This document shows, one piece after another, positions 2,418 to 61,578 of a stretch of 64,000 nucleotides of DNA. Origin of the DNA: Escherichia phage vB-Eco-KMB26; the sequence record OR539218.1. One strand, 5' to 3'. A program made the translations under genes and the position numbers. The notes under the pieces were generated by a model. It saw nothing but the letters and a program-made list of their open reading frames with translations. It did no database searches and had not been told where the DNA came from. Position 1 is the first letter of the stretch; every line of letters begins with the position of its first letter.

Positions 2418-2447
2418 ATTATACCACATCCTTGTGGTAAAGTAAAC
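2418..2447 (-). promoter_or_regulatory. T4-type early promoter upstream of rIIA.1/rIIA
   Basis: Minus strand GTTTAC, 17 bp, TATAAT; overlaps the 3' end of gene 39. Confidence 0.6.
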
Positions 2448-4267
2448 TACTGGCTCATCCATTCTTTACGAAGGTCAGCATTATCTCCCATGAGCATTTC
2501 AAAAAGCTCTTTCCAGTTCTCAGGAAGTTTAACAACATCATATACTGGATTTTGAATCATCTCACGATATTCAGATTTTTCCAAAGAGCCAAGTCCTTTA
2601 ATATAACGGATGCTATGTTTAGGTAGAGCATCTTTAGCACTCTCATATTCAGCGACTGTATAAAACCATTCTTGTTTTTTACCGACCTGAGCGATGATTA
2701 CAGGAGTTTTGACAAAACGAATTCTTCCTTGCTCAAACAGTTCTGGCCAATTACTAAAAAACCCGAGCAGAGAAGGATAAATGCTTCCTAGACCATCATG
2801 GTCAGCATCAGTCATAATAGCAATATTATGATAATTCAAGTTTTCAGCTTTTTCACCGAGAACTAATCCAGTGATTGCGCAAATATCAAACAATTCTTTG
2901 TTTTTAAGCATATCAGCATATGACATACCCCAACTGTTGAGAACTTTACCGCGCAATGGATAACCACCGTGAAGTTCTTTATCACGAACATCAATAAGAT
3001 ATCCGATAGCCGAATCACCCTCAGTCAAGAAAAGAGTAGTGTCAGCATCTTTACCACAAAGATTCGCTTTGATATGTTTATGAACCTTAGCTTTAGAAGC
3101 CTTTTTAGCTGCTTTAGTTTCTGCTGCTTTTTCTGCCGCCAATTTACGAGCCAAAGCAGCTTCAATAATCGGCATTAGAATTGCTTCATTATTTAGAATA
3201 GCGCGTGAAATCTTTTTAGCATCAAGTTGAATATGACTACGAATTTCGCCAAATGGAGAAGTCAAACGCTCTTTAGTTTGAGAATCAAATCGCATGTTTT
3301 TCATATCACGAACAAACATAACGATAGTCAAACATTCTTTAACACGCGCTTTAGTTACATCAATTTTGAACTTACGTTTGATTTGTGGAATAAGGTCTTC
3401 ACAAATATCATCCATAACACAGTCAATGTGATGGCCACCATTCTTAGTGTGAATGTTATTGACGTATGTTAATTGACGAAAACCATCCGGTGAACGACCA
3501 ACCGCAATAGAACAATTTTCTTGTTCTTGAACAATAGCATGCTCATCATATTGGCGTGCATATTTCTTAAAATTGCCCTGAACCTTTTTACCATTAAAGG
3601 TAAATTGAATATCAGGATAAACTACTGCAAGTGTCTGGAGACGATCTAGTGTAATGTCAAGATAAACTTGGGACAGCTCATTAGTTTCAAATGACATAAA
3701 ATCAGGAATGAAAGTAACACGAGTTCCTTTCCATTTTCCAGGAATAGTTTCCCATGATTTATTTTCCATGCCATTTGAACAACGAACTACAATATTATTT
3801 TGACCATCACCAGTTTCACCGACAAACATCACAGAAAAAATGTTTGTCAAACTAGAACCAACACCATTCATACCGCCAGTGACGCGTTCTTTATCATCAC
3901 CGAAGTTACCACCTGCTTTTGGAATAGTCCATGCAGCAACAGGACCAGGAATTTCTTCACCGGTAGGTGTTTTAACCATCGCCTGCGGAATACCACGACC
4001 GTTATCTTCAACTGTTACTTGATTGTTTTTAATAGTAACATTAATTTTATTTGCGAATTTAAACTTAGTACGAATACCTTCATCTACTGAGTTATCGATA
4101 ATTTCATCAATAAGCTTAACAAGACCAGGTACATACTGAACACTTTCCCATTTACCAAACAGAAAGCGCTCATGCATTTCATTAGCAGAAGAGCCAATAT
4201 ACATGCCACTACGCTTTTTGATATGCTCAATATCGCTCAGAATTTTAATTTCATTCTTAATCATCAC
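2447..4267 (-). CDS. 39: DNA topoisomerase II large subunit (GyrB-like ATPase), continuous 39+60-type ORF
   Basis: 606 aa with GHKL motifs (IDEIIDNSVDE, NGRGIP) and TOPRIM region; one uninterrupted frame. Confidence 0.9.
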   Translation of the reverse strand: MMIKNEIKILSDIEHIKKRSGMYIGSSANEMHERFLFGKWESVQYVPGLVKLIDEIIDNSVDEGIRTKFKFANKINVTIKNNQVTVEDNGRGIPQAMVKTPTGEEIPGPVAAWTIPKAGGNFGDDKERVTGGMNGVGSSLTNIFSVMFVGETGDGQNNIVVRCSNGMENKSWETIPGKWKGTRVTFIPDFMSFETNELSQVYLDITLDRLQTLAVVYPDIQFTFNGKKVQGNFKKYARQYDEHAIVQEQENCSIAVGRSPDGFRQLTYVNNIHTKNGGHHIDCVMDDICEDLIPQIKRKFKIDVTKARVKECLTIVMFVRDMKNMRFDSQTKERLTSPFGEIRSHIQLDAKKISRAILNNEAILMPIIEAALARKLAAEKAAETKAAKKASKAKVHKHIKANLCGKDADTTLFLTEGDSAIGYLIDVRDKELHGGYPLRGKVLNSWGMSYADMLKNKELFDICAITGLVLGEKAENLNYHNIAIMTDADHDGLGSIYPSLLGFFSNWPELFEQGRIRFVKTPVIIAQVGKKQEWFYTVAEYESAKDALPKHSIRYIKGLGSLEKSEYREMIQNPVYDVVKLPENWKELFEMLMGDNADLRKEWMSQ

Positions 4268-4319
4268 TTATCCTCGTTTGGTTTCGGGAATATTATACTC
4301 CGGTAATCATAAAGCTAAA

Positions 4320-4331
4320 GGCCCGAAGGCC
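4320..4331 (-). terminator. UUCG-tetraloop hairpin between 39.1 and 39
   Basis: ggcc-cgaa-ggcc; T-run on the + side, so possibly bidirectional. Confidence 0.5.
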
Positions 4332-4333
4332 TT

Positions 4334-4603
4334 TTATTTAAAACGAATAGTCGAATCCTTGAAGAATAGTCCAGAACATACTGTTCCTTCTACTTTCTGC
4401 CCAGTAGGTCCAATAGCACGAAATCCAGTATGCTGGAAATCATTTTCAGAGCAACCGAACCAATTATATCCAGTGATTTCAATATTAGTAAAACCACTTG
4501 AAGACAAAACTTTGGTTGCATTATCAGCATCAGTACATCCTATTAAAGACACTGCTAATACTAATGCTGCGATAGAACGATTAATATATTTCATAATTTT
4601 CAC
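4334..4603 (-). CDS. small lipoprotein-like protein (39.1 position)
   Basis: 89 aa; N-terminal hydrophobic signal with lipobox-like LIGC; stop codon abuts a tetraloop hairpin. Confidence 0.6.
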   Translation of the reverse strand: MKIMKYINRSIAALVLAVSLIGCTDADNATKVLSSSGFTNIEITGYNWFGCSENDFQHTGFRAIGPTGQKVEGTVCSGLFFKDSTIRFK

Positions 4604-4971
4604 TTAAATTTAATGACTTGAAGAAGACTAATAACTCTCAAGCGACTTCTTTCATCTTTAACTGTAAAAGAAAGAGGGTCACCAGACTTCATAGTAATAG
4701 TGCATTCAAAATCAAAATCTTCGGGAACTTCTTCGAAGAAGTCAAATTCTTCATCATATATTAGAACATTACTCTGAAAACTGTGAAGAATTTTTCCGTC
4801 ATTTCCAGATGCTGTACTAATCATTGTAACGTTATTACCTTTCATATCTTCAACGATAAATTCGCTTGTAGATATTACAGCATTAATAGAACCATTCCTA
4901 TAAATAGCAGAAAATAGATATTTCTTTTCTTCACCTTCGCGAATGCGATATTTCTTACCGATTTTAAACAT
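4600..4971 (-). CDS. hypothetical protein (39.2 position)
   Basis: 123-aa ORF, 4-nt overlap with downstream gene, same strand. Confidence 0.5.
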   Translation of the reverse strand: MFKIGKKYRIREGEEKKYLFSAIYRNGSINAVISTSEFIVEDMKGNNVTMISTASGNDGKILHSFQSNVLIYDEEFDFFEEVPEDFDFECTITMKSGDPLSFTVKDERSRLRVISLLQVIKFK

Positions 4972-5784: not shown

Positions 5785-5883
5785 AATTTCCTCATTAATT
5801 GAACATTGGAGCGATGCGTTTCAGAAGAGTATCAGCGCACCTTTAACGAATTATCCATTTTATTCTTCAAGTTGTTTTCTGTA

Positions 5884-5929
5884 TCAGTAGTTGATATTGA
5901 TATAGTACCATAATCAACTACTGATGTAT
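5884..5929 (-). promoter_or_regulatory. 13-bp perfect inverted repeat enclosing a TGGTACTAT -10-like motif
   Basis: atcagtagttgat ... atcaactactgat read directly; the loop carries the same extended -10 as the early promoters but no GTTTAC -35. Confidence 0.4.
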
Positions 5930-5955
5930 ATAGTTTTATGAAAAAATTTTAAACT

Positions 5956-6447: not shown

Positions 6448-6523
6448 AATTATCTCTCACTTGTTAAAAAGATTTTATACTCCACAGGACCATTATACTC
6501 TGGTCCCAAGAGTTTGTAAACTA

Positions 6524-7063
6524 TTAATTCAAAATAGCTACCACTGCACTACGAGGTACTACGCTAAAATCACCTGCATGAACAACGTTCAGAAGTTCAA
6601 CACCATCTTCAATCCATTGGTCTGTTACCCAACCACAGACCGAAATAAATGGGGTCTTAATAGCTACAGCACGAGTCAAAAGGTCAGTAGGATCAACTTC
6701 TTTGAAGAGGATAAGCTCTGCTTCAAAGACTATAGTTTTAATTACTTCATCATTATCTAAACGTTGTGCTCGAATCACGTAAGCTTTATTCTTATCATGC
6801 CAGTTACTTTTTGAAAAGCTTTTAACCACAAACTCGCCTTCACCAAAAACGCTAGTCAATGCTTTATAACCCAAATTTAGTTCAGTAGTTTTAATTTCAG
6901 TTTCAACTAGTTTGTAGGTTTTGCCGATTTCAATAGCGGTAGTCATAGTAGGTTCCTTAATTTCCAGTGGTTTAACAGGGCATACATAAGTGCTTACAAC
7001 ATCAAAATCAATCAGTTTAGCTACCGGATTTGGTATGTATTCAGGATTATAATTAAATTTCAT
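6524..7063 (-). CDS. hypothetical protein, paralogue of the MotB-like C-terminal domain
   Basis: 179 aa; C-terminus VTDQWIEDGVELLNVV resembles ITDQWVEDGVKLYNAV of 5956..6447. Confidence 0.6.
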   Translation of the reverse strand: MKFNYNPEYIPNPVAKLIDFDVVSTYVCPVKPLEIKEPTMTTAIEIGKTYKLVETEIKTTELNLGYKALTSVFGEGEFVVKSFSKSNWHDKNKAYVIRAQRLDNDEVIKTIVFEAELILFKEVDPTDLLTRAVAIKTPFISVCGWVTDQWIEDGVELLNVVHAGDFSVVPRSAVVAILN

Positions 7064-7566: not shown

Positions 7567-7593
7567 TTTATTATCCTCAGTAGCTATGGTGTT

Positions 7594-7623
7594 ATAATAC
7601 CACAACTAACCGAGGAAGTAAAC
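7594..7623 (-). promoter_or_regulatory. T4-type early promoter
   Basis: Minus strand GTTTAC, 17-bp spacer, TATTAT. Confidence 0.55.
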
Positions 7624-11422: not shown

Positions 11423-11545
11423 ATTTTTCTCACATCTTACGGACGGTTAACTACTTATACTATAACATTTTTACCTTAACTTGTAAACAACTTTATGTAA
11501 AAATGCTTTAAAACTTTCATGGTATAATGAATCTAAGTCCTTCCA

Positions 11546-12148: not shown

Positions 12149-12768
12149 TCAACTACCTCAATATCATAAACTTTAAATGTTCCAAATGAATCGTGTAATT
12201 TTTCTTTTGAAATAGAAGTTATTCTATACTTTCCAATTGGAATCATCCATTCTTGTTCACGCACAATCATCATTAAGTTATCAGTACGCTCTGAATCTAG
12301 CCCATCAGTATCTTCATACGTGTACTTAAACTCAGTATTAGGAGAAGAAAGTATAATATCGCTGATATGGTCAGAATAATTAAAAGCTTTATCAGTTTTT
12401 AAGCGAAATATTATTTCAGTGAAATACTCAACATAAGAAAAACCACATGCTGTGTGCAAACTAGTAGTAAATGAATCTACCCTATTCGTTGAAAACACTT
12501 CTCCAACTTGTAAATCTTTAATGAGTTCTTTTGTCGATTTTGATATACCACGATATAACTGATAAGGTGATTTAGTTAAATGCTTTTTAACGATTTTATT
12601 CAACTGCCGATGAAGAGCTTCATTCTTTTTAGCTTCCATACATTGCCAAAGAATTGACTGCTCAAAGTCAGTAAATTTTTCACAGACTTTTTTATACATA
12701 TCATATTGAAAATCAACGCTTTCAGCTTTTATAGATAACTGTTCAACATCTGCAAGATTAATAATCAT
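12145..12768 (-). CDS. modB: ADP-ribosyltransferase ModB-like
   Basis: 207 aa, paralogous to ModA (REQEWMIP); 4-nt overlap with modA. Confidence 0.7.
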   Translation of the reverse strand: MIINLADVEQLSIKAESVDFQYDMYKKVCEKFTDFEQSILWQCMEAKKNEALHRQLNKIVKKHLTKSPYQLYRGISKSTKELIKDLQVGEVFSTNRVDSFTTSLHTACGFSYVEYFTEIIFRLKTDKAFNYSDHISDIILSSPNTEFKYTYEDTDGLDSERTDNLMMIVREQEWMIPIGKYRITSISKEKLHDSFGTFKVYDIEVVE

Positions 12769-12794
12769 GATAGCCTCCGTATACTTCAGAAGCT

Positions 12795-12824
12795 ATCATA
12801 TCATCATTAGAAAGGAAAGTAAAC
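12795..12824 (-). promoter_or_regulatory. T4-type early promoter (weaker -10)
   Basis: Minus strand GTTTAC, 17 bp, TATGAT, upstream of modB. Confidence 0.4.
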
Positions 12825-14908: not shown

Positions 14909-14938
14909 ATTATACCATACTCATTTTGGAAAGTAAAC
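14909..14938 (-). promoter_or_regulatory. T4-type early promoter
   Basis: Minus strand GTTTAC, 17 bp, TATAAT. Confidence 0.6.
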
Positions 14939-14954
14939 CATTTAAATGAAAAAA

Positions 14955-14972
14955 GGACTCCCGAAGGAGTCC
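14955..14972 (-). terminator. UUCG-tetraloop hairpin 3' of soc
   Basis: ggactcc-cgaa-ggagtcc, 7-bp stem, directly after the soc stop. Confidence 0.6.
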
Positions 14973-14980
14973 TTGAATTA

Positions 14981-15294: not shown

Positions 15295-15813
15295 TTAATA
15301 ACCTCGGTCTTGACGAGCGAAATTTTCAGCATTTTTCAGATAATAAAGTTTAAAGATTTCTTCAGCCGTAAGACCGAGGCCTTGGAACATGTTCAGAACG
15401 AAATGAAGAATATCAATCATTTCGAATTTAATTTCCAACTGGTCTTGTGGAGACAAATCAGTAATCAGAGTTTCACGTCGTTCACCATGTTGAGCTTTCC
15501 AAGGCTTCCATACAGCAGATGCATCTTTTTCACCATTGCTCATACCACCAAGAGAAGTCAGAAGTTCGCGGAATTCATCATCAATATAATCTTTCTGATT
15601 ACGCAGCCAATCAACAACTTCACCTGCAGTAGCCAAATCATCAGGATGACGGTTATATTCAGGTTTATCTTTAGCTAAACGAATCTGCAGAGATTTCTGC
15701 ATGTCAAGCATTACCTGCAGCGGGTCTTTTTCATCACCGAGAATATCCCAATATTCATTTTGAGCTTTATCAGCGCCTTCGATCAGTTGACTACATTCGT
15801 TAAAGTAAGCCAT
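15295..15813 (-). CDS. 56: dCTPase/dCTP pyrophosphatase gp56
   Basis: Track ORF trimmed to the ATG after AAGGA; protein begins MAYFNE as recalled for T4 gp56. Confidence 0.85.
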   Translation of the reverse strand: MAYFNECSQLIEGADKAQNEYWDILGDEKDPLQVMLDMQKSLQIRLAKDKPEYNRHPDDLATAGEVVDWLRNQKDYIDDEFRELLTSLGGMSNGEKDASAVWKPWKAQHGERRETLITDLSPQDQLEIKFEMIDILHFVLNMFQGLGLTAEEIFKLYYLKNAENFARQDRGY

Positions 15814-15873
15814 TATTTTTCCTTTCAATTCATCAATAAGTTAAATAATTATATCATTTGAGTATGTAAGCAA

Positions 15874-17213
<1,340 letters not shown>

Positions 17214-17237
17214 TATATCATCCTCAGCAATTTATTT

Positions 17238-17267
17238 TATAATACCATAACAAGCTGAGAAAGTAAA
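17238..17267 (-). promoter_or_regulatory. T4-type early promoter
   Basis: Minus strand GTTTAC, 17 bp, TATTAT, upstream of the nuclease-like ORF and dam. Confidence 0.55.
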
Positions 17268-17312
17268 CAAATTTATGAAATTTGTGATAAATATTAATTT
17301 AAAGGAGGACAT

Positions 17313-19398: not shown

Positions 19399-19428
19399 AT
19401 AGTATCTCAATTTCCAATAAAAGTAAAC
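19399..19428 (-). promoter_or_regulatory. T4-type early promoter
   Basis: Minus strand GTTTAC, 17 bp, TACTAT, upstream of sp. Confidence 0.55.
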
Positions 19429-19872: not shown

Positions 19873-19901
19873 AACAATCTCCTCATTTAACCAACAAGAC
19901 T

Positions 19902-19931
19902 ACTATACCATAGTCTTGTCAGCTTGTAAAC
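19902..19931 (-). promoter_or_regulatory. T4-type early promoter with 9-bp inverted repeat in spacer
   Basis: Minus strand GTTTAC, 17 bp, TATAGT; caagactat/atagtcttg inverted repeat. Confidence 0.55.
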
Positions 19932-26861: not shown

Positions 26862-26891
26862 ATAGTACCATGGAAGAACAGGGATGTAAAC
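26862..26891 (-). promoter_or_regulatory. T4-type early promoter, copy 1 of tandem pair
   Basis: Minus strand GTTTAC, 17 bp, TACTAT. Confidence 0.55.
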
Positions 26892-26907: not shown

Positions 26908-26937
26908 ATAGTACCATGGAAGAACAGGGATGTAAAC
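26908..26937 (-). promoter_or_regulatory. T4-type early promoter, copy 2 of tandem pair
   Basis: Identical to copy 1, 46 bp upstream. Confidence 0.55.
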
Positions 26938-27024
26938 AGTTTTGTGAAAATTTTTTAGGGAATTCTAAATGTCCAGAATCATCTGTTTTTCATAAGTATA
27001 GATTTATATTACTTGTATGAAAAA

Positions 27025-27040
27025 GGGACCCGGAGGTCCC
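27025..27040 (-). terminator. tetraloop hairpin 3' of gene 43
   Basis: gggacc-cgga-ggtccc, 14 nt after the gene 43 stop. Confidence 0.55.
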
Positions 27041-27053
27041 TAGATTTATTCTA

Positions 27054-35512: not shown

Positions 35513-36528
35513 TGTGTTGCCTCTACATATAACTGATTTGCATATTGAATAAGTGCTTCACGGTCAGAATCAGTGATGTCTGGAATTGCATTAATGTATT
35601 CTTCCATCAACGTCTGAAGAGATTGAACTTCAACCTCTTCGCTGTCATCTGACTCGACAGAGTTATCAATCTTTGACACAACTCGTAACGAATGCACAAC
35701 TTTCTCTAGTTCAGATTCGAACTTCGTCAGATTTTTGTCTACTTCAGTTACTATAACACGTACTGATAGATTTGTAAAATCTTTATAGTCAATTTTTCCT
35801 TTAAATGGATAATGAATTCTACGATGCCAGGTAGTATTGTTTGGAATAAATTCCATTCGTTCTGTTTCTGTATCAAACATCCAGAACCCACGAGGGTCAT
35901 TCTCGTCACCTGCAGTTAGTGTCCATGGTGTCCCAATATATCTGACGTTAGCAGCCTCAGAAATAGTATGGAAGTGACCAGACCACACTTCTTTATAAGT
36001 CTTAAGGAAATCAGGTTCAAGACCGTGAGATTTCATTCCTTTATAAAAATAAAATCCATTCAGTTCCCAGTGACCAACACAAAAAGAAGCAGATGAAGTT
36101 TTGATATGCTCAAGAATTTCACCAGTATTTTCTTCACACATCCAAGGAATTAAATCAATTAAACATCCGTCAAAATCTACTGTAGTAGGCTTATCATATA
36201 CTTTAACATTAGGATATTTAGCCAAAAGCTCAGTAGAGGCATTTGGAGTTAAAGTATTTTTAAAGTGCATATCATGGTTTCCTACAATAGTATGTAGGGT
36301 AATACCAGCATCATCAAGCATTTGAACTATTTCACGGGCGAACTCCATAGTTTTGTGTGTGATTGCTTTTCGCACATCAAAAATATCACCGTATTGAATC
36401 CAGGTAGTAATTCCATTTTTCTTAGAATATTCTATTGCTTGTTTAATTCCATCCAACTGAATGGATTGAACCCACTCATCATCGGCTTTAACGCCTAAAT
36501 GCCAATCACCTAAATTTAAAATTTTCAT
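35509..36528 (-). CDS. 47: recombination/repair nuclease subunit gp47 (Mre11/SbcD-like phosphoesterase)
   Basis: 339 aa with metallophosphoesterase motifs (GDWH, GNHD). Confidence 0.9.
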   Translation of the reverse strand: MKILNLGDWHLGVKADDEWVQSIQLDGIKQAIEYSKKNGITTWIQYGDIFDVRKAITHKTMEFAREIVQMLDDAGITLHTIVGNHDMHFKNTLTPNASTELLAKYPNVKVYDKPTTVDFDGCLIDLIPWMCEENTGEILEHIKTSSASFCVGHWELNGFYFYKGMKSHGLEPDFLKTYKEVWSGHFHTISEAANVRYIGTPWTLTAGDENDPRGFWMFDTETERMEFIPNNTTWHRRIHYPFKGKIDYKDFTNLSVRVIVTEVDKNLTKFESELEKVVHSLRVVSKIDNSVESDDSEEVEVQSLQTLMEEYINAIPDITDSDREALIQYANQLYVEATQ

Positions 36529-40543: not shown

Positions 40544-40759
40544 TTAAATTTCCCAATTACCATTTTCATCAATAAATTTAATCCAGTCATTTACTGACCA
40601 CTTAGTTGTATCGCCTTTTGGAGTAACATTTAAAGTATATAACCCCTGCTTAAAAAGCATTCGTTTGATATTCATATTTTCCTCAGCTATAACGATAACA
40701 CTCGTTTGATTTACGTTTAGCAACTCGTTGAGAAGTATTATAATCAAAATCATCGTCAA
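40544..40759 (-). CDS. small hypothetical protein
   Basis: 71-aa ORF. Confidence 0.45.
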   Translation of the reverse strand: MTMILIIILLNELLNVNQTSVIVIAEENMNIKRMLFKQGLYTLNVTPKGDTTKWSVNDWIKFIDENGNWEI

Positions 40760-41015
40760 TGTAAACTGATTTTTTCAACTTTCTTACTTCACCGCGTAAT
40801 TGACGATTTAACTCATCTTTAACTTCTGAATCAATACCTTTCATTCTACGCCATTTATCTGAGCGAAAAATGTTTTCAACCATATCTTTATGACTTACAC
40901 CATCAGGAGCTTTACGCTTTCCGAAATAGTCATAATCACGAACTTTCAAGTCTTTACGACGATACGTTTTACCCATGGAGTTTAATTTCCTTAGCAACTG
41001 AACTAAATGCAGCAC
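40683..41015 (-). CDS. basic hypothetical protein
   Basis: 110-aa ORF, Arg/Lys-rich. Confidence 0.45.
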   Translation of the reverse strand: MLHLVQLLRKLNSMGKTYRRKDLKVRDYDYFGKRKAPDGVSHKDMVENIFRSDKWRRMKGIDSEVKDELNRQLRGEVRKLKKSVYIDDDFDYNTSQRVAKRKSNECYRYS

Positions 41016-41181: not shown

Positions 41182-41211
41182 ATAATACCACAGTTTGAGC
41201 TCGTTGTAAAC
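41182..41211 (-). promoter_or_regulatory. T4-type early promoter
   Basis: Minus strand GTTTAC, 17 bp, TATTAT. Confidence 0.5.
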
Positions 41212-44922: not shown

Positions 44923-44958
44923 TAAAATGTCCTGTCAGAAAAAGAATTTTGAGTTTTT

Positions 44959-45444: not shown

Positions 45445-45566
45445 GTCCCATCTCCATATCAATTAAGTCATTTATCGTTGGTTCATTATATACTGTTTCT
45501 TCATCAGTGTAAACCGGTTCTTCCGGCTCTGGCTCTACAGTTTCCCATCTAGCCGCCCACCAAGGT

Positions 45567-45737
45567 TTAACCCCGAAGCTTATTAAGTTCTTCATAATCA
45601 ATCCAGGATTCTAATCCTGATGGCAAATCAGATTCAATTTCCCAAAGAAGCTCTTCAATTTTCTGAAGACGATCTAGTTCTTCGGCTGGAATAGTAACCA
45701 TTGACGGAGCTCGTGATACATTAATATCGTAAATCAT
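45567..45737 (-). CDS. small acidic protein
   Basis: 56-aa ORF not in track (MIYDINVSRAPSMVTIPAEELDRLQKIEELLWEIESDL...). Confidence 0.35.
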   Translation of the reverse strand: MIYDINVSRAPSMVTIPAEELDRLQKIEELLWEIESDLPSGLESWIDYEELNKLRG

Positions 45738-45739
45738 AT

Positions 45740-45955
45740 TTACCCCAATTTAACCATACAATCGCCGTATTTCCACTTAGAAATAGACTTTTCACCATTA
45801 GAATAATAAACTTCGAGTTTAGCACGATTATTTTTAATTTGAATAACCTTGGCTGTCATCAAAGTTCCATACCCATAATAAACTGCAACTTCATCACCTA
45901 CATATACCGCGCTTCCGCGGTAATCATGAATATAGTCAGTTCCTTCGAGCATCAT
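45740..45955 (-). CDS. small hypothetical protein
   Basis: 71-aa ORF, 4-nt overlap with nrdC. Confidence 0.5.
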   Translation of the reverse strand: MMLEGTDYIHDYRGSAVYVGDEVAVYYGYGTLMTAKVIQIKNNRAKLEVYYSNGEKSISKWKYGDCMVKLG

Positions 45956-48859: not shown

Positions 48860-48889
48860 ATTATACCACATCCTTGTGGCAAAGTAAAC
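48860..48889 (-). promoter_or_regulatory. T4-type early promoter
   Basis: Minus strand GTTTAC, 17 bp, TATAAT, with ccacatccttgtgg inverted repeat in the spacer (near-identical to the one at 2418..2447). Confidence 0.6.
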
Positions 48890-51805: not shown

Positions 51806-51833
51806 TTTGTGTTCCTCCGTAGTTGATAGTTGT

Positions 51834-51863
51834 ATAGTACCACAGAGGAACAGTCTTGTAAAC
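51834..51863 (-). promoter_or_regulatory. T4-type early promoter
   Basis: Minus strand GTTTAC, 17 bp, TACTAT, followed by ACAACTATCAAC. Confidence 0.55.
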
Positions 51864-53239: not shown

Positions 53240-53275
53240 TTTATTCTCCAATCTCACATTTGTTTTGATAGGGTA

Positions 53276-53305
53276 ATAGTATCACACTACTACCCTTCTG
53301 TAAAC
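53276..53305 (-). promoter_or_regulatory. T4-type early promoter
   Basis: Minus strand GTTTAC, 17 bp, TACTAT. Confidence 0.55.
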
Positions 53306-53308
53306 AAT

Positions 53309-53572
53309 TTATTTTAACGTTCGCCAAATTTTTACTGCTTCACGGCGAGATACTTCTACAGCTCCAAGTTCTACAGCTTTTTGGCGTCGGCGAGCGTGTA
53401 AGTCATAATGTTTAATGCGTTTATCTTGAAACCAAGAACGTTTCATTCCTATTGCTTCTGCCATTTCATGAAGCTCTTCAATATCTCCATCAGTGAACAT
53501 ATGACAATTTTTAGTTGGATGACCGCGAAGTTTCCATCCATGATTCATTAAAACATCTACGTAAACTGTCAT
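53309..53572 (-). CDS. small basic protein
   Basis: 87-aa ORF. Confidence 0.5.
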   Translation of the reverse strand: MTVYVDVLMNHGWKLRGHPTKNCHMFTDGDIEELHEMAEAIGMKRSWFQDKRIKHYDLHARRRQKAVELGAVEVSRREAVKIWRTLK

Positions 53573-53718
53573 TGATTCTTCTCCAAATAAGTTTCGATAA
53601 TTTTCTGAGCGAGATAAACTGCATTATCTTCAGTTGCATCTTCTAAGAAACTTTCAAAACACTCTGAAATTTCTTCTGTATCAATCAACTTTTTTACTTC
53701 AATTGGTGTAATTTTCAT
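53569..53718 (-). CDS. small acidic protein
   Basis: Track ORF trimmed to MKITPIEVKK... (49 aa) so the promoter lies upstream. Confidence 0.45.
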   Translation of the reverse strand: MKITPIEVKKLIDTEEISECFESFLEDATEDNAVYLAQKIIETYLEKNQ

Positions 53719-53755
53719 TTTGTTTTTCCGTTTAAGTGTTTGTTTTGATAGTTGT

Positions 53756-53785
53756 ATAGTACCATAAAGCTTTATGCTTGTAAAC
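53756..53785 (-). promoter_or_regulatory. T4-type early promoter
   Basis: Minus strand GTTTAC, 17 bp, TACTAT. Confidence 0.55.
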
Positions 53786-53815
53786 AATTTTGTGAAAAAT
53801 TTTTGAAATAAAAAA

Positions 53816-53833
53816 GGGAGCCCGAAGGCTCCC
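53816..53833 (-). terminator. UUCG-tetraloop hairpin
   Basis: gggagcc-cgaa-ggctccc right after the stop of 53836..54849. Confidence 0.6.
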
Positions 53834-53835
53834 TA

Positions 53836-56395: not shown

Positions 56396-56530
56396 AATTA
56401 CATACTCCTTTGAATAATATCAATAATGTTGTTCACCAGATTATAAGTAAACATTGGATAATTATATTGAATCATCACATACACAACAAACAAAACTTTC
56501 ATTCTCTTCTCCTTGGCAGTTGACAAGATT

Positions 56531-56560
56531 ACTATATCATAATCTTGTCAACTTGTAAAC
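56531..56560 (-). promoter_or_regulatory. T4-type early promoter with 12-bp perfect inverted repeat
   Basis: Minus strand GTTTAC, 17 bp, TATAGT; ttgacaagatta/taatcttgtcaa palindrome spans the spacer. Confidence 0.55.
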
Positions 56561-56562
56561 CA

Positions 56563-56736
56563 TTAAATGACGTTTTCAATAAAATTCTGAAGCTTTGTGT
56601 GAGCATCAACCATGATTTTCATTTCTTCTTTGGCGAAAGCTGTACCTCTTTCCCGAGAAGAACACTCATAGTCAGAAACTGCATTAGCATATTCTTCAAT
56701 TAGTTTCATTAAAAACATCTGCTTTTCAGTTTTCAT
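56563..56736 (-). CDS. small hypothetical protein
   Basis: 57-aa ORF not in track (MKTEKQMFLMKLIEEYANAVSDYECSSRERG...). Confidence 0.35.
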   Translation of the reverse strand: MKTEKQMFLMKLIEEYANAVSDYECSSRERGTAFAKEEMKIMVDAHTKLQNFIENVI

Positions 56737-56920
56737 TATTCCACCTAATCATTTCAAGATATTGAACTAACTTAGCTTTGGATTTATCCAAATCCTTTTT
56801 AGCTGCTTCTATACCGTCGTATGAATATCCTTCACAATGCTCAACTGCTAATTGGTATGAATCTATTTCAATATCACGTGCTAATTTAATGATTTTTTCA
56901 AACTGTTCACGTGTTAGCAT
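56726..56920 (-). CDS. small hypothetical protein
   Basis: 64-aa ORF. Confidence 0.5.
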   Translation of the reverse strand: MLTREQFEKIIKLARDIEIDSYQLAVEHCEGYSYDGIEAAKKDLDKSKAKLVQYLEMIRWNNEN

Positions 56921-56922
56921 AA

Positions 56923-57162
56923 TTAAACTCTCGTATTATGATCGATAATTTCATCAAGAAACATATCTAACGCTTCTAAAGCATTATCAACTTTAGCTTC
57001 AAATTTTTCAATACCTTTATTTGCAATGCCTGCCGAAAACCAAGCAAAGTCACTAAGTTCCTCATCTGCTTTGCGAATTAAAGCTACCAATTCTTTAATT
57101 TTATCTGCTTGTTCAATTCTAGTCATTATTCCACCACATATGAAAGAGAGAATATTGCACAC
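56923..57162 (-). CDS. small hypothetical protein
   Basis: 79-aa ORF. Confidence 0.5.
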
Positions 57163-57314
57163 GCCATATGAGTTGCAGCTTCATCACACATATCATAACG
57201 TTTCTTAAGAAGTTCTACAAGTTCTTCACTAGTAACTTCATCCATGTCGACGAAAAAATCACCATTAATGATGACGTAGATATTTCCTTCTTGATTAAGT
57301 GCTTCAATTTTCAT
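57126..57314 (-). CDS. small acidic protein
   Basis: Track ORF trimmed to MKIEALNQ... (62 aa) downstream of an early promoter. Confidence 0.5.
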
Positions 57315-57342: not shown

Positions 57343-57372
57343 ATAGTACCACAGCTCAAACGGAAAGTAAAC
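57343..57372 (-). promoter_or_regulatory. T4-type early promoter
   Basis: Minus strand GTTTAC, 17 bp, TACTAT. Confidence 0.55.
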
Positions 57373-57387: not shown

Positions 57388-57405
57388 AGTCTCCCGAAGG
57401 AGACT
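57388..57405 (-). terminator. UUCG-tetraloop hairpin
   Basis: agtctcc-cgaa-ggagact after the stop of 57410..57796. Confidence 0.6.
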
Positions 57406-60176: not shown

Positions 60177-60514
60177 CTAGTACTCAATCCTCGATTATAA
60201 GAATCTACCAAACGGTCAACCATTGAATGACAAGCGGCTTTATCTTTCTCCTCCGCAACTGAACATTCTAAGGTATTCCACTTTTTAGCATATCGTTTTA
60301 ATAATGTATCGTTTTTGTATCTGCTTGATTTATCTCTTTCTCCGTCTTTATATGCATATATTAATTTCTGCGCAAATTCAGCTTGGCATGCTTTATTTTT
60401 CCCACAATAATCTGCCGCAGTGCGATTTACATATTCTCTAATTTCAGTATATGATGTATCTGCTAACGCAGAAAATGAAATTAATCCTATACATAAAACC
60501 AAAATTTTAGTCAT
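60173..60514 (-). CDS. secreted protein (position of T4 vs)
   Basis: 113 aa with N-terminal signal peptide. Confidence 0.5.
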   Translation of the reverse strand: MTKILVLCIGLISFSALADTSYTEIREYVNRTAADYCGKNKACQAEFAQKLIYAYKDGERDKSSRYKNDTLLKRYAKKWNTLECSVAEEKDKAACHSMVDRLVDSYNRGLSTR

Positions 60515-61052
60515 TTACTATTTCCAAAAGTTTATTATTTTTAAGGTAATTAGCCTTTTCTAGGACTTCAGAAGCATATTTAGAACCTGCTTTAACATTC
60601 CATCCCGAATTATAAGATGATATTGCTTTTCTTATATCGCCCTTATGTATATTTAACCAATAAGAAAGTTCAATGTACGCCCAGGAAGCTGAATTGGATC
60701 GTTTATTCAACATTCTTTTTATTTCAGCATCGGTCATATTATAACCAAGTTCCTTAACTCTTGCTCGCATAGTAGGCAAATAATTTTGGAACATTCCATA
60801 AGCGTGATGCTTTGGTTTAGATTTTAAATTAACTCCGCCAGAGCTTTCTTGCCATAAAATAGCAGCCATTATATGACCTAATCCGCTCTTGTGGATATTT
60901 TTGTGTGTTTTATATTTTCCATCCTTAGAAAACTGTTCCCCGAATTGATACGCGTAACGCATGTTATCGAGTTGGACATTACTGAAAGTATGCTCGGAGC
61001 TATGTGCCATCATAGAAATGGCCAATAGACCAGCGAGTAGTGCTTTTCTCAT
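60507..61052 (-). CDS. secreted lytic-transglycosylase-like protein (vs.1 position)
   Basis: 181 aa, signal peptide, ESSGG and GMFQ motifs reminiscent of SLT/lysozyme domains. Confidence 0.55.
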   Translation of the reverse strand: MRKALLAGLLAISMMAHSSEHTFSNVQLDNMRYAYQFGEQFSKDGKYKTHKNIHKSGLGHIMAAILWQESSGGVNLKSKPKHHAYGMFQNYLPTMRARVKELGYNMTDAEIKRMLNKRSNSASWAYIELSYWLNIHKGDIRKAISSYNSGWNVKAGSKYASEVLEKANYLKNNKLLEIVND

Positions 61053-61059
61053 GTTTACC

Positions 61060-61521
61060 TCATTGAGTTTTAATTACTGCTTTAGAAGCCTTTCCTGGTA
61101 AACGACGACTGTTGATAATTGCCATCCTACATTGAAGTGACGGGTCTTTGAACTTCTCATTAGGTTTACAAACTGTAAATCCAAGCCAAAGATTTCCATC
61201 TGTAATTTCTAAACGTCCAGGACGATATTCAACTCCATCAATAAAATCCTCATCAATGTCAGGACGCGGAGGCATACTCAGGAATTCATTAACTTCTAAA
61301 ACATGGTCTTTTATTTTATGGAATAATTCAAAAACATATGTCTCATCAATCTCCCGTTGAATTGCACGATCAAGAAGATGTTGAGAATATTTTAGATGAA
61401 ACGATGAGACCCCTGCTGCTTTTGATGCCTCACGAATCTCATTGTTAATTTGACGAAACTCCGACTCAAAGTGACGACGAAGCTTATTTCGACGGATAAA
61501 AACTTCTGTATTGATAGTCAT
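61060..61521 (-). CDS. regB: RegB endoribonuclease
   Basis: 153 aa matching recalled T4 RegB; early promoter upstream. Confidence 0.85.
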   Translation of the reverse strand: MTINTEVFIRRNKLRRHFESEFRQINNEIREASKAAGVSSFHLKYSQHLLDRAIQREIDETYVFELFHKIKDHVLEVNEFLSMPPRPDIDEDFIDGVEYRPGRLEITDGNLWLGFTVCKPNEKFKDPSLQCRMAIINSRRLPGKASKAVIKTQ

Positions 61522-61548
61522 GTTGTTCTCCTCTTAACTGATAGAAAA

Positions 61549-61578
61549 ATTATACCACAGTCAAGAGGAAAAGTAAAC
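61549..61578 (-). promoter_or_regulatory. T4-type early promoter upstream of regB
   Basis: Minus strand GTTTAC, 17 bp, TATAAT. Confidence 0.6.

Follow-up and report, generated by a model that had tools for sequence, protein, structure and literature searches.

The early promoters of bacteriophage T4 carry the consensus GTTTAC at -36..-31 (PMC1524935) within an UP/-35/TGn/-10 architecture (PMC2988021). Published T4 early promoter map units include 27,044, 35,662, 41,225 and 57954, and Pe35.3 and Pe40.4 have been mapped in T4 by primer extension both in vivo and in vitro (PMC6024815). Such Pe sites would be recognised immediately after infection by unmodified E. coli sigma-70 RNA polymerase through four elements, an A/T-rich upstream region, GTTTAC (-36..-31), TGn (-15..-13) and TAnnnT (-12..-7), and the expected transcription start is 36 nt past the G that opens GTTTAC.

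The stretch of DNA analysed here (the window) covers the first 64 kb, from rIIA to about denV, of the Tequatrovirus vB-Eco-KMB26 (OR539218.1; hereafter, KMB26). By sequence comparison it is colinear with T4 positions 12-65,193 at 89-98% identity, and its closest database matches are Tequatrovirus genomes (99%).

Results

A motif search for GTTTAC-N18-TAnnnT returned 21 matches in the window, all on the minus strand (21/21, with 0 on the plus strand), compared with 1.07 +/- 0.98 in 100 dinucleotide shuffles. The minus-strand motif family described in the sequence-only reading is therefore real, and the coordinates given there (2418, 19902..19931, 48860, 56531..56560 and 61578) are those of exact 30-nt promoter spans; its count of about 17 sites is reproduced by the -10 elements TATAAT, TACTAT or TATAGT, found in exactly 17 of these matches. 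The spacer length is 18 nt, not 17 bp as first proposed: GTTTAC followed by 17 nt has 0 matches, the 18-nt spacing is unique (other spacings give only 0-3 matches each), and to arrive at a 17-nt spacer one has to take TTTAC(A/T) (TTTACW) as the -35 hexamer.

The weight-matrix scan proposed with the sequence-only reading was run with a matrix built from the window's own sites, and the highest value reached by any of 30 random sequences (13.9 bits) served as the threshold. Above this random maximum lie 22 minus-strand sites and none on the plus strand. The resulting set of 23 promoters comprises the 21 exact-motif sites, 5931 (from the weight matrix; 31.8 bits versus the random maximum of 13.9, and 97% identical to T4 at about 6561-6658) and 35779, which was absent from the earlier reading and scores 11.9 bits, below the random maximum, but was added by orthology to T4 Pe35.3. 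Promoters are designated below by the coordinate of the G of the -35 element (-36), and T4 G denotes the corresponding T4 position.

2418..2447 (-): early promoter; G (-36) at 2447, -10 TATAAT; rIIA.1 homologue start 2392; 100% identical to T4, G 2458; small intra-spacer stem CCACAaggaTGTGG; paralogue of 48889
5902..5931 (-): early-promoter-like site; variant -35 ATATAC with TGGTACTAT; 117-nt leader before cef homologue
6492..6521 (-): early promoter; motB homologue start 6447; T4 G 7215
7594..7623 (-): early promoter; motB.2 homologue start 7566; T4 G 8218; spacer is an anti-Shine-Dalgarno arm
11459..11488 (-): early promoter; srd homologue start 11422; T4 G 11851; probably Pe11.5 (name from PMC6024815)
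12795..12824 (-): early promoter; modB start 12768; T4 G 13186; probably Pe12.8
14909..14938 (-): early promoter; mrh.2 homologue start 14882; T4 G 15288; preceded by intrinsic terminator
17239..17268 (-): early promoter; start of 186-aa ORF, absent from T4, at 17213
19399..19428 (-): early promoter; sp (spackle) homologue start 19370; T4 G 20109; probably Pe19.8
19902..19931 (-): early promoter; dmd start 19872; T4 G 20612; probably Pe20.3
26862..26891 (-): early promoter; downstream copy of 46-bp tandem duplication; T4 G 27080, giving 27,044, Pe26.4
26908..26937 (-): early promoter; the duplication's upstream copy (array 26845-26941)
35750..35779 (-): intragenic early promoter; variant -35 TTTTAC; identical to T4, G 35698, giving 35,662, Pe35.3
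40737..40766 (-): intragenic early promoter; T4 G 41261, giving 41,225, Pe40.4
41182..41211 (-): early promoter; 55.6 homologue start 41151; T4 G 41706; probably Pe41
45485..45514 (-): weak-context site inside 49.1 homologue; T4 G 47452; putative promoter of uncertain function
48860..48889 (-): early promoter; nrdC.4 homologue start 48831; T4 G 50973; stem CCACAaggaTGTGG
51834..51863 (-): early promoter; nrdC.8 homologue start 51805; T4 G 53943; spacer is an anti-Shine-Dalgarno arm
53276..53305 (-): early promoter; nrdC.10 homologue start 53239; edge of insertion relative to T4
53756..53785 (-): early promoter; T4 G 55384; precedes two inserted small ORFs
56531..56560 (-): early promoter; mobD.2 homologue start 56502; T4 G 57990, giving 57,954, Pe57954
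57343..57372 (-): early promoter; mobD.5 homologue start 57314; T4 G 58780; preceded by intrinsic terminator
61549..61578 (-): early promoter; regB start 61521; T4 G 62797; spacer is an anti-Shine-Dalgarno arm

All 23 promoters are oriented like early genes, TG is present at -15/-14 in 19, and the upstream A+T content is 74% (66% genome-wide). To call them near-identical was an overstatement, as mean pairwise identity amounts to 57% in the 30-nt core and 33% in the spacer; only 26891/26937 (identical) and the paralogous copies 2447/48889 (97% over 32 nt) form close subfamilies. A downstream block said to be frequent does occur, although ACAACTATC follows the -10 element in only 5/23 and ACAACTATCAAC is exact at three sites and has one mismatch at another. 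As proposed, an ORF start follows within 20-40 nt at 18/23 (25-40 nt), with five exceptions: 6521 (44 nt), 5931 (117 nt), 26937 (83 nt, because its tandem copy 26891 lies in between) and the intragenic 40766 and 35779. The sequence context is weak at two sites, 35779 and 45514. The latter precedes the start of the pin homologue (45444) by 40 nt and is among the two weakest of the 21 exact-motif sites (19.3 bits versus 24.2 for 40766); no published counterpart of it was found in the literature.

Near-identical T4 orthologues were identified for 20 of the 23 promoters. For four of these, Pe26.4, Pe35.3, Pe40.4 and Pe57954, subtracting 36 from the T4 coordinate of the G of GTTTAC gives 27,044, 35,662, 41,225 and 57,954, in exact agreement with the published map units (4/4). 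Since the predicted starts of the T4 orthologues equal published positions, the sites are sigma-70 early promoters of the classical type (Pe), belonging to a T4-like phage of the genus Tequatrovirus, and the initial reading as early promoters for host RNA polymerase is borne out. Their identity is established from sequence statistics and orthology to mapped T4 promoters; from T4, they would be expected to be active in KMB26.

Some differences from T4 are apparent. The 46-bp promoter repeat is present in two copies in the window and in a single copy in T4. The T4 counterpart of 53785 drives nrdC.10, whereas in the window similarity to T4 stops a few nucleotides past the predicted start. No T4 match was found for 17268, whose 186-aa ORF matches phrog_8706, and comparison with T4 returned no counterpart of 53305.

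At 19931, the stop codon of gene 41 ends on the G of GTTTAC. Hairpins followed by T-runs, resembling intrinsic terminators, lie upstream of four promoter loci:

14953..14974 (-): intrinsic-terminator-like hairpin and T-run, directly upstream of 14938
27024..27041 (-): intrinsic-terminator-like hairpin and T-run, located upstream of the promoter duplication 26937/26891
53815..53834 (-): intrinsic-terminator-like hairpin and T-run, directly upstream of 53785
57388..57405 (-): intrinsic-terminator-like hairpin and T-run, directly upstream of 57372

The spacers of some promoters are complementary to the sequence that follows them. Across the 23 promoters, the mean spacer-to-downstream duplex energy is -10.7 kcal/mol for cognate and -6.9 kcal/mol for non-cognate pairs, and the cognate mean was reached by 0/20,000 permutations. 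For eight promoters the rank is 1 of 23 along row and column alike (-17.8 to -23.1 kcal/mol), and the complementarity is specific in nine; the other 14/23 do not exceed a baseline of about -7 kcal/mol, which arises because the spacers are pyrimidine-rich and the Shine-Dalgarno region is purine-rich. The predicted hairpins are as follows:

61526..61572 (-): class A hairpin, regB; 5' arm 61555-61572 (spacer), 3' arm 61526-61544 including GAGGAG; 18 pairs, 3 G.U, -21.5 kcal/mol; rank 1 of 23 both ways
51810..51852 (-): class A hairpin, nrdC.8; 5' arm 51839-51852, 3' arm 51810-51823 including GGAGG; 14 pairs, -20.2 kcal/mol
7574..7616 (-): class A hairpin, motB.2; 5' arm 7599-7616, 3' arm 7574-7590 including GAGGA; 17 pairs, -23.7 kcal/mol
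17221..17261 (-): weaker class A hairpin, 186-aa ORF (17213); TTTCTCAGC pairs with GCTGAGGA; -12.1 kcal/mol; ranks 3 and 2 of 23 in cognate test
12761..12804 (-): modB hairpin, from -10 of promoter 12824 to modB start codon; GGAGG and AUG buried; 18 pairs, -19.1 kcal/mol
56518..56553 (-): class B hairpin, mobD.2; 14-bp perfect repeat (15 RNA pairs) around -10, Shine-Dalgarno excluded
19889..19924 (-): class B hairpin, dmd; 9-bp perfect repeat extending to 15 RNA pairs, 4 G.U; sense -18.9 versus antisense -10.1 kcal/mol
53267..53298 (-): class B hairpin, nrdC.10; spacer arm with -10 and next bases (GGGTAGTAGTG / TACTATTACCC)
6479..6513 (-): class B hairpin, motB; GGGACCA / TGGTCCT plus outer helix; register as in 56560 and 19931; U opposite G where T4 has C
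5883..5925 (-): class B hairpin, upstream of cef; spacer ATCAGTAGTTGAT with downstream ATCAACTACTGAT block

Since most of its 5' arm lies downstream of the spacer, the modB hairpin does not stand out in the spacer test.

Pairing is retained where sequence is not. In diverged lineages (62-85% protein identity), regB, motB.2 and nrdC.8 keep an 11-18-bp spacer/Shine-Dalgarno stem of different sequence; the regB stem is found in three lineages, with 3 compensatory pairs by RNAalifold, while a MAFFT-based consensus fold was unsuccessful for motB.2. Exchanging arms between lineages costs 6-13 kcal/mol. Among close orthologues, 9/11 stem substitutions retain pairing, all of them Watson-Crick to G.U changes, a small count for which, with a 50% null, the one-sided p is about 0.03. 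Between orthologues, the mobD.2 stem varies by A-to-G changes giving G.U. The same cognate excess, reached by 0/20,000 permutations, is seen for 32 independent promoters from other T4-like contigs. As judged from these comparisons, the pairing is under selection.

The palindromes had been suggested to bind a regulator or to form cruciforms. The repeats do exist, though not in the form described. That at 56531..56560, given as 12 bp, is a perfect 14-bp repeat of which half lies outside that range, with arms at -29..-16 (spacer) and -7..+7 (beyond the -10 element); the 9-bp repeat at 19902..19931 is present with the same geometry and is not intra-spacer. Only CCACAaggaTGTGG (2447, 48889) is an intra-spacer palindrome, and its 5-7-bp stem is matched in length in half of random 60-mers. 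The window promoters as a class show no enrichment for perfect repeats; in a non-redundant set of 51 promoters that includes the window sites, perfect repeats of at least 6 bp occur in 23 (45%, versus 23% of controls), and their centres cluster at -9..-14.

Five lines of evidence speak against the operator or cruciform proposal. The repeat sequences vary between promoters, which rules out a shared operator; the large repeats extend beyond the spacer, with one arm in it and the other downstream of the -10 element; the nine pairing-retaining changes noted above would be mismatches in DNA; 21 G.U pairs occur among 10 stems; and the sense fold is more stable than the antisense fold in 9/9 strong cases. 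RNA hairpins on read-through transcripts fit these observations better.

Discussion

The sites are very probably accounted for as T4-type early promoters, some of which are embedded in hairpins. In 9-10 promoters the spacer would form the 5' arm and the sequence downstream of the -10 element the 3' arm. As transcripts initiated at the promoter itself start within the loop or past it, the stem would form only on RNA read through from an upstream promoter; predicted structure is -20 to -27 kcal/mol on read-through RNA and 0 to -5 kcal/mol on the promoter's own transcript.

What the hairpins do we infer from their position. In five (regB, motB.2, nrdC.8, the 186-aa ORF at 17213 and modB) the Shine-Dalgarno sequence lies within the 3' arm, and the hairpin probably conceals the ribosome-binding site belonging to the next gene on read-through transcripts. 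These transcripts would be poorly translated, and possibly shielded against RegB cleavage at GGAG; those starting promoter-proximally, by contrast, would be open. It is also conceivable that the stem mediates coupling rather than insulation: in most hairpin promoters its base lies about 9 nt past the upstream stop codon, so that a ribosome terminating there could open it in part.

Concealment of the ribosome-binding site does not extend to the other five (dmd, mobD.2, motB, upstream of cef, and nrdC.10), in which the stem surrounds the -10 element. No single function covers all cases, because these class B stems leave the ribosome-binding site free; most likely they are intergenic stem-loops of the PeSL kind, acting as attenuators or as 3'-end stabilisers of upstream transcripts.

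The promoters themselves are already known and ordinary, the exception being the arm of a conserved hairpin that about a third of them carry. If the proposed concealment of the ribosome-binding site is correct, expression of the five genes concerned would be tied to their own early promoters.

Genome setting and relation to T4

The window is colinear with T4 (NC_000866) from T4 position 12 (rIIA) to about 65,193, and most of the aligned blocks are 89–98% identical. The closest matches in the phage collection are Tequatrovirus genomes, at ~99% identity. The G+C content is 32–36%, the GC skew is negative throughout, and the minus strand holds every orthologous gene according to the T4 annotation. 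Taken together, the colinearity, the Tequatrovirus matches and the strands of the T4 genes identify the window as the prereplicative (early and middle) region of a T4-like phage. No Rfam family was found within the window at gathering thresholds.

The gaps in the alignment of the window with T4 correspond to homing-endonuclease genes of T4 and a few cassettes. Missing from the window are the T4 segF segment (T4 15610–16270), the segA region (23561–24550), the mobB (37817–38679), mobC (42916–43518) and mobD (56449–57258) segments, and the nrdD intron with I-TevII (44814–45850). The segment T4 2793–3911, comprising gene 60 with its 50-nt translational bypass, 60.1 and mobA, is likewise absent; the topoisomerase large subunit is therefore unsplit in this phage, and a single 606-aa ORF (2447–4267, minus strand) occupies the place of the split genes 39 and 60. 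The beta-glucosyltransferase region (window 23279–24205) has merely 65% identity to T4.

A family of T4-type early promoters

The sequence-only reading had proposed about 17 near-identical early promoters, each with GTTTAC, a 17-nt spacer and a TATAAT-like hexamer. Sites are named here by the minus-strand coordinate of the first base (G) of GTTTAC, and numbering is relative to the predicted transcription start 36 nt downstream of that base. The motif family is real: GTTTAC followed after 18 nt by TAnnnT occurs 21 times, always on the minus strand, compared with 1.07 ± 0.98 times in shuffled sequences, and other spacings from 14 to 22 nt give 0–3 matches each. The proposed spacer length was wrong as literally put, as GTTTAC-17 nt-TAYWRT has no match in the window; a value of 17 nt holds only if the -35 hexamer is read as TTTAC[A/T]. 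Since the coordinates quoted with the proposal are exact 30-nt promoter spans, the discrepancy reflects miscounting. The count of 17 can also be recovered, with TATAAT, TACTAT or TATAGT present at 17 of the 21 sites.

In a scan with a weight matrix derived from these sites, 22 sites exceeded the best random score, every one of them on the minus strand; this added site 5931, in which the -35 element is ATATAC. Site 35779 (TTTTAC) has a matrix score under the random threshold; its T4 counterpart, identical in sequence, is a promoter located by primer extension. Across the resulting 23 sites, GTTTAC is exact at -36 to -31 in all except these two variants (21/23), and the -10 element TAnnnT lies at -12 to -7, 18 nt past GTTTAC (17 nt past TTTACW), which is the only enriched spacing. 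An extended -10 (TGn) is recognized in 19 sites from TG at -15/-14. The A+T content at -60 to -37 is 74%, versus 66% genome-wide, a modest UP-like signal. Scans with a generic sigma-70 consensus failed to separate the window from shuffles (95 vs 92.9, 91 vs 87.4, 92 vs 85.2 and 16 vs 14.0 matches). The promoter signal is that of the T4-specific extended motif, and only that motif is informative.

Other parts of the initial description require qualification. The term 'near-identical' was an overstatement, as mean pairwise identity is 57% in the core and 33% in the spacer, and the downstream block ACAACTATC, described as frequent, follows 5 of the 23 sites. A distance of 20–40 nt to the ORF start is correct for 18/23 sites (25–40 nt, to a start codon with a Shine-Dalgarno sequence); it does not apply to 6521 (44 nt), 5931 (117 nt), two intragenic sites, or 26937, which is 83 nt upstream because a tandem copy intervenes before the ORF.

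The promoters and genes are all on the minus strand, so oriented that the promoters point into the early (prereplicative) genes, and 20 of the sites have near-identical orthologues in T4 (94–100% sequence identity). Counting 36 nt from the G places the starts of four T4 orthologues at 27,044, 35,662, 41,225 and 57,954. Identical map units are printed for Pe26.4, Pe35.3, Pe40.4 and 'Pe57954' (PMC6024815), the source from which T4 promoter coordinates were taken; the GenBank and RefSeq T4 records carry no promoter features. Pe35.3 and Pe40.4 have been verified by primer extension both in vivo and in vitro (PMC6024815). The T4 early consensus likewise has GTTTAC at -36 to -31 and the -10 element at -12 to -7 (PMC1524935), and T4 early promoters are of the UP/-35/TGn/-10 type, out-competing host promoters (PMC2988021); they are treated further in Hinton 2010 (PMC2988021) and Patterson-West et al. 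2018 (PMC6024815). The extended context is poor at the intragenic promoters Pe40.4 and Pe35.3, so extended conservation is not needed for activity. T4 early promoters are reportedly also the subject of Wilkens and Rueger (1994) and Miller et al. (2003). By proximity only, Pe11.5, 12.8, 15.0, 19.8, 20.3 and 41 would fit the remaining orthologues.

The window sites thus share with T4 Pe26.4, Pe35.3, Pe40.4 and Pe57954 their consensus, strand, downstream genes and start coordinates, and every sequence-level defining feature of the T4 Pe class is present, which supports the early-promoter reading. They differ in that 17268 and 53305 lie at insertions and have no T4 counterpart, and in that the Pe26.4 orthologue is tandemly duplicated; moreover, the T4 promoters were mapped experimentally, whereas those of the window are predicted from the sequence of a T4 relative. 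The promoter family is therefore real, was correctly read as early promoters, and is already known: the observation is highly non-random but is a rediscovery of textbook T4 elements in a close relative. The promoter map is nevertheless useful for annotation, in trimming ORF starts, defining transcription units and flagging promoter-flanked cassettes.

Geometry of the inverted repeats

The larger perfect repeats had been placed inside the spacer, the stretch between the -35 and -10 elements. For 56560 and 19931 this is incorrect, since the -10 element is in the loop and the second arm runs across the transcription start. At 56560 a perfect 14-bp repeat has arms at -29 to -16 and -7 to +7, and at 19931 a 9-bp repeat has arms at -24 to -16 and -7 to +2; a 6-bp repeat at 6521 (7 bp in T4) occupies the same register as these two. 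Only CCACAaggaTGTGG, at 2447 and 48889, truly lies within the spacer, as had been claimed, and it is not significant. It was rejected on account of its length of 5–7 bp, which is common by chance, and an unremarkable cognate duplex score; its second occurrence is due to the paralogy of the two promoters (97% identity over 32 nt). Over the window promoters as a class, perfect repeats are not enriched, with a mean longest stem of 5.0 versus 4.7 nt and repeats of at least 6 bp in 5 of 23 promoters versus 20% of controls.

Pairing of promoter spacers with downstream leaders

RNA folding of the -36 to +20 region pairs the spacer with the leader downstream of the -10 element at many sites. The spacers are pyrimidine-rich and the Shine-Dalgarno regions purine-rich, and this opposite bias causes z-scores from mononucleotide shuffling to exaggerate significance; they were not relied upon. 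As a control for composition, the duplex energy of each spacer was instead calculated against each downstream segment. The mean is -10.7 kcal/mol for cognate and -6.9 kcal/mol for non-cognate pairs, and the cognate mean was reached in 0 of 20,000 permutations. The cognate energies are bimodal: eight of the 23 promoters, at -17.8 to -23.1 kcal/mol, rank first of 23 in both directions, 17268 is just behind them, and 14 show no signal over background. The stems are of two kinds, according to whether the 3' arm includes the Shine-Dalgarno sequence (class A) or the stem flanks the -10 element and leaves the Shine-Dalgarno sequence out (class B).

Promoters with spacer–leader stems (all minus strand)
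61578, regB: class A, among the eight top-ranked
51863, nrdC.8: class A, among the eight top-ranked
7623, motB.2: class A, among the eight top-ranked
17268, 186-aa ORF: class A
12824, modB: class A
56560, mobD.2: class B, among the eight top-ranked
53305, nrdC.10: class B, among the eight top-ranked
19931, dmd: class B, among the eight top-ranked
6521, motB: class B, among the eight top-ranked
5931, upstream of cef: class B, among the eight top-ranked

Stems spanning the -10 element are found at 9–10 promoters, with energies of -12 to -24 kcal/mol. At modB the 5' arm of the class A stem starts in the -10 element. The modB hairpin (12761–12804, minus strand) has 18 pairs, extends from the promoter -10 to the start codon, and buries both GGAGG and AUG; it would be escaped only by transcripts begun at the 12824 promoter.

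Such complementarity could be a by-product without function, if promoter strength favours T-rich, C-containing spacers (GTTTACTTTCC...) and these happen to pair with a purine-rich Shine-Dalgarno sequence 25–30 nt further on. Non-cognate spacers and leaders do already average -6.9 kcal/mol, 14 of the 23 cognate pairs are no better than that average, and the weak cases 57372 and 14938 (CTTTCC with GGAGAG) appear compositional. However, the eight cognate pairs that rank first both ways are 9–14 kcal/mol better than their row and column means, and the class B stems are not pyrimidine/purine pairs. A by-product would also not account for the comparison between lineages, in which stems differing in sequence are nonetheless paired and arm swaps forfeit most of the energy. 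We regard this explanation as quite unlikely.

For that comparison, orthologous loci were fetched from viral contigs by way of the RegB, MotB.2 and NrdC.8 proteins. The regB upstream regions of three lineages (protein identity 99%, 77% and 68%) have spacer/Shine-Dalgarno stems of 11–18 pairs that differ in sequence:

regB stem, T4 type: UUUUCCUCUUGACUG with CAGUUAAGAGGAGAA
regB stem, second lineage: UUCUCCUCUAGUUG with CAACUAGAGGAGAA
regB stem, third lineage: UCUCCUGUAAG with CUUACAGGAGA

At motB.2 the stem is kept as CCUCGGU...CUGAGG in one lineage and CCUCAUG/CAUGAGG in another, and at nrdC.8 one lineage has a -10-flanking stem instead. Swapping arms between lineages weakens the duplex from between -18 and -23 to between -9 and -15 kcal/mol. 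RNAalifold on a plain MAFFT alignment of the regB loci was partially successful, recovering 13 pairs, three of them with compensatory double changes; for motB.2 it gave no consensus fold, owing to register shifts between the lineages. Folds calculated per lineage, together with arm swapping, were used in place of a consensus fold. Among close orthologues there are 11 distinct substitutions within stems, of which nine keep the pairing, all as changes between Watson-Crick and G.U pairs, and the two that break it are peripheral.

The pattern extends to other phages. In 32 promoters from other T4-like contigs, unrelated in sequence to those of the window, the same cognate excess was seen (0 of 20,000 permutations). 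In a set of 51 non-redundant promoters that includes the window sites, perfect repeats of 6 bp or more occur in 23 (45%), compared with 23% of controls, and the repeat centres cluster at -9 to -14.

These data also bear on the proposal that the repeats are DNA operators for a dimeric phage or host regulator, such as a factor for early-promoter shut-off, or cruciforms with the -10 element displayed in a loop, which would influence open-complex formation or recruit endonuclease VII. The 14-bp and 9-bp repeats at 56560 and 19931 are indeed perfect as DNA; these and 6521 share one register, with arm 1 running up to -16, arm 2 beginning at -7 and an 8-nt loop centred on the -10 element; and T4 early-promoter shut-off is described as incompletely understood (PMC3014915). 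Yet the arm sequences vary by promoter, leaving no common operator, and a search for a palindrome shared as a DNA operator among regulated promoters found none. DNA-perfect repeats of at least 9 bp occur in just 2–3 of the 23 promoters. The ten stems require 21 G.U pairs, which are mismatches in DNA, and in nine of nine strong cases the sense strand folds more stably than the antisense strand, by 1.5–9.3 kcal/mol. The nine substitutions that exchange Watson-Crick and G.U pairs destroy DNA symmetry while keeping the RNA pairs. The operator or cruciform idea is accordingly unsupported, and we consider it very unlikely. Covariation between lineages, the G.U pairs, the sense-strand bias and the wider promoter sets argue instead for selection on RNA, and we think it probable that spacer–leader pairing is selected at the RNA level, in the sense transcript.

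Several related sites were noted. At 5883–5931 (minus strand), a promoter-like site has the non-consensus -35 element ATATAC and forms a 13-bp stem with a ATCAACTACTGAT block; a leader of 117 nt separates it from the cef homologue, and the downstream half of the site has 90% identity to the T4 70.6-kb region upstream of e.8. Outside the window, the T4 promoters at 65799, 66498 and 70359 (ipII, ipIII and e.7) have -10-flanking stems, of 14 bp at ipII; PeSL-like elements have been reported at internal-protein loci (PMC2839356), and these T4 stems match them. At the regB, motB.2 and nrdC.8 homologue loci, where the proteins are 62–85% identical, CTATCAAC (or CTGTCAAC) is conserved at about +1 to +8 downstream of the early promoters, and the window has copies of this block at 26850–26861 and 51822–51833. 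The conservation suggests that the initial transcribed sequence may be under a constraint of its own, independent of the hairpins.

A proposed read-through hairpin over the Shine-Dalgarno site

The 5' arms lie at -30 to -13, upstream of the transcription start, so the promoter's own transcript lacks the 5' strand and the stem can form only on RNA from an upstream promoter. For the stronger stems, the leader with its upstream arm folds at -20 to -27 kcal/mol (-14.5 kcal/mol for 17268), and transcripts from the promoter's own start fold at 0 to -5 kcal/mol. For class A the predicted values are -12 to -27 kcal/mol in the long RNA versus 0 to -3 kcal/mol in the own transcript. Prereplicative transcription in T4 consists largely of polycistronic read-through (PMC2988021, PMC6024815).

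Precedents exist in which a helix over the Shine-Dalgarno sequence blocks initiation, namely T4 e, soc, 49 and I-TevI, with a late promoter located within the hairpin (PMC3014915, PMC2988022); control of this type has been reviewed by Uzan and Miller 2010 (PMC3014915) and Edgell et al. 2010 (PMC2988022). In T4 e, soc, 49, I-TevI and segB and in Aeh1 mobE the Shine-Dalgarno/AUG region is sequestered only on transcripts from upstream promoters (PMC3014915, PMC2988022), and the same is predicted here. As in the e/soc/49/I-TevI type, the promoter lies within the 5'-strand sequence, and its own transcript is without that strand and would be translatable. The embedded promoter of those genes is, however, late (TATAAATA) or middle and delays expression, whereas it is early here. 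The predicted effect would be the reverse, expression being limited to the early period, or else to the promoter-proximal transcript.

Under this scheme, read-through RNA would be translationally silent at the class A cistrons and the promoter-proximal RNA would be open. RegB, MotB.2, NrdC.8 and ModB would then be synthesized in step with their own early promoters, until early-promoter shut-off. The RegB endoribonuclease targets GGAG where it forms the Shine-Dalgarno site of a T4 early mRNA, as in regB and motA, and is reportedly restricted to early mRNAs. About two-thirds of the leaders here have GGAG at the Shine-Dalgarno position, and regB itself bears a hairpin. The GGAG sequestered in a class A stem is thus a RegB target; when paired it would be expected to escape cleavage, and the same stem could protect long transcripts from RegB, which would fit the restriction to early mRNAs. 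Whether the class A stems gate translation as proposed we judge to be evenly poised.

The stems might instead serve translational coupling, in which an upstream ribosome, on terminating, opens the base of the stem and exposes the Shine-Dalgarno sequence, such that downstream translation is proportional to that upstream and not silenced. The positions of the upstream stop codons are compatible with this, at -41 to -39 for 61578, 56560, 51863 and 6521, -38 to -36 for 19931 and -45 to -43 for 7623, and the anti-Shine-Dalgarno bases form the base of the stem, closest to the stop codon. A ribosome covers ~12 nt beyond the first base of the A-site codon, and a terminating ribosome would probably reach only to about -29, opening the first 1–2 bp of a 14–18-bp stem without getting as far as the CCTC paired to GGAG. 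In class B the ribosome-binding site is not part of the stem, and no ORF ends near promoter 17268. Coupling therefore appears unlikely as the function of the stems. For class B, which starts a few nucleotides past the upstream stop codon, a role as an attenuator or in stabilizing 3' ends would be more natural, as for PeSL-like stem-loops (PMC2839356); the class B stems look like the T-even counterparts of these, of which the T4 ipII promoter is an example.

Relation to PeSL cassettes, terminators and insertions

The stems can also be compared with the PeSL promoter–terminator cassettes of RB49/phi1, PST/T4 and nt-1/KVP40 (Arbiol et al. 2010, PMC2839356; Comeau et al. 2014, PMC4122927), with which they share the combination of an early promoter and a stem-loop, the location of the stem-loop between -35 and -10 or over -10, an intergenic position directly upstream of the Shine-Dalgarno sequence and start codon, and a possible association with indels between close relatives. 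On this account the stem-loops would mainly stop or attenuate upstream transcription and furnish short conserved homologies for the recombinational shuffling of promoter-plus-ORF units, and the hiding of a ribosome-binding site would be incidental. In RB49/phi1 the stem-loops are mostly between -35 and -10 or overlap -10, one stem-loop of this type reduced a downstream lacZ as strongly as rrnB T1, and T-even analogues on T4 early promoters were noted at the IP loci (PMC2839356), a description that the 14-bp stem flanking the -10 element of the T4 ipII promoter resembles. Within the window, early promoters border two segments inserted relative to T4 (53251–53745 and 16740–17281), one promoter is tandemly duplicated beside a third insertion, and most hairpins start a few nucleotides past the upstream stop codon.

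The resemblance is incomplete. No T-run follows the class A or class B stems, for which reason a terminator role for the -10-spanning stems was considered and downgraded, and a test for intrinsic terminators did not flag the stems of regB, motB.2, nrdC.8, dmd or mobD.2. The only hairpins in or around a -10 element that it flagged were the spacer stem 48864–48881 and the modB hairpin, both with weak tails. The canonical terminators of the window are separate hairpins upstream of other promoters, as described for T4/PST in Comeau et al. 2014; there the authors mark the stem-loops just upstream of the promoter, whereas the stems considered here span the -10 element. RB49 PeSLs have stems based on G/C runs and promoters with a perfect sigma-70 consensus, neither of which applies here. 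The GGGG...CCCC motif of the RB49 PeSLs is missing from the stems, and a search for a conserved PeSL stem motif (G-run/C-run of RB49/phi1; AGNA-loop-TCNT of PST/T4) found none, the -10-spanning stems being unrelated in sequence and free of G/C runs. The elements that do resemble the PST/T4 description are the upstream terminators (e.g. CTCCTTCGGGAG). Finally, the covariation at regB, motB.2 and nrdC.8 preserves pairing of the Shine-Dalgarno core in three lineages, which a pure terminator or linker would not need. As the main role of the stems, a PeSL-type function is possible but, in our view, less likely than not. It can coexist with the translational reading, as an untranslated downstream cistron would invite Rho-dependent termination.

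Canonical terminator hairpins are found directly upstream of four promoters, namely 14938, 26937, 53785 and 57372, none of which has a strong hairpin of the spacer–leader kind. All four thus belong to the 14 non-hairpin promoters among the 23 (p ~0.11, hypergeometric by hand), and this suggestive complementary distribution is a non-significant trend. The terminators are strong, have UUCG-type loops, and form terminator–promoter modules:

14953–14974, minus strand: terminator upstream of promoter 14938
27024–27041, minus strand: terminator upstream of promoter 26937
53815–53834, minus strand: terminator upstream of promoter 53785
57388–57405, minus strand: terminator upstream of promoter 57372

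Promoters 14938 and 57372 are ~88% identical across about 41 nt, a stretch that takes in the terminator tail.

By plain count, three indels between the window and T4 abut early promoters: 16740–17281, 26577–26811 with the duplication, and 53251–53745. The duplication (26845–26941) is a tandem of the Pe26.4-type promoter with a 46-bp unit in 2.1 copies at 98% match, for which T4 has one copy. The adjoining insertion of ~234 bp (26577–26811) encodes a 78-aa ORF (start 26824), the first codons of which are like those of imm.1. Two small ORFs, phrog_6888 and phrog_4887, lie between promoters 53785 and 53305 in the insertion 53251–53745, and the 186-aa ORF behind promoter 17268, in the insertion 16740–17281, is phrog_8706. 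Promoter-bounded insertions fit the promoter-mediated cassette shuffling proposed for PeSLs.

Implications for early gene expression in T4-like phages

Beyond the known promoters, the residual interest lies in the 9–10 of 23 that embed the 5' arm of a co-evolving RNA stem. The PeSL papers (PMC2839356, PMC4122927) contain no description of spacer/Shine-Dalgarno pairing or covariation, and co-evolution of this kind at early promoters was not found in the reviews consulted, although the T4 literature of the 1980s–1990s and the 2003 review could contain it. That about one-third of T4-type early promoters also encode the 5' half of a conserved RNA switch, and that such a switch is both true and undescribed, is a suggestion we offer tentatively, as plausible but short of probable. 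In such a switch the spacer would be the anti-Shine-Dalgarno (or stem) arm and would pair with the leader only on read-through RNA; translation, and exposure of GGAG to RegB, would occur only on transcripts from the gene's own early promoter.

The correction to the palindromes is worth keeping, in that early-promoter spacers co-evolve in many T4-like phages with the leaders of the genes under their control. If real, the RNA switch would mirror, at early promoters, the late-only control of e, soc, 49 and I-TevI, and would account at the sequence level for both strictly immediate-early genes and the sparing by RegB of GGAG-bearing middle and late RNAs. Should the stems act as a translational or RegB gate on read-through RNA, they would add a testable layer to the early-to-middle switch of a model phage. 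Promoter spacers, usually deemed free sequence, would then be constrained by the RNA that they encode when transcribed from upstream, and the RB49-type PeSL stem-loops would be tied to a concrete function in the T-even group.
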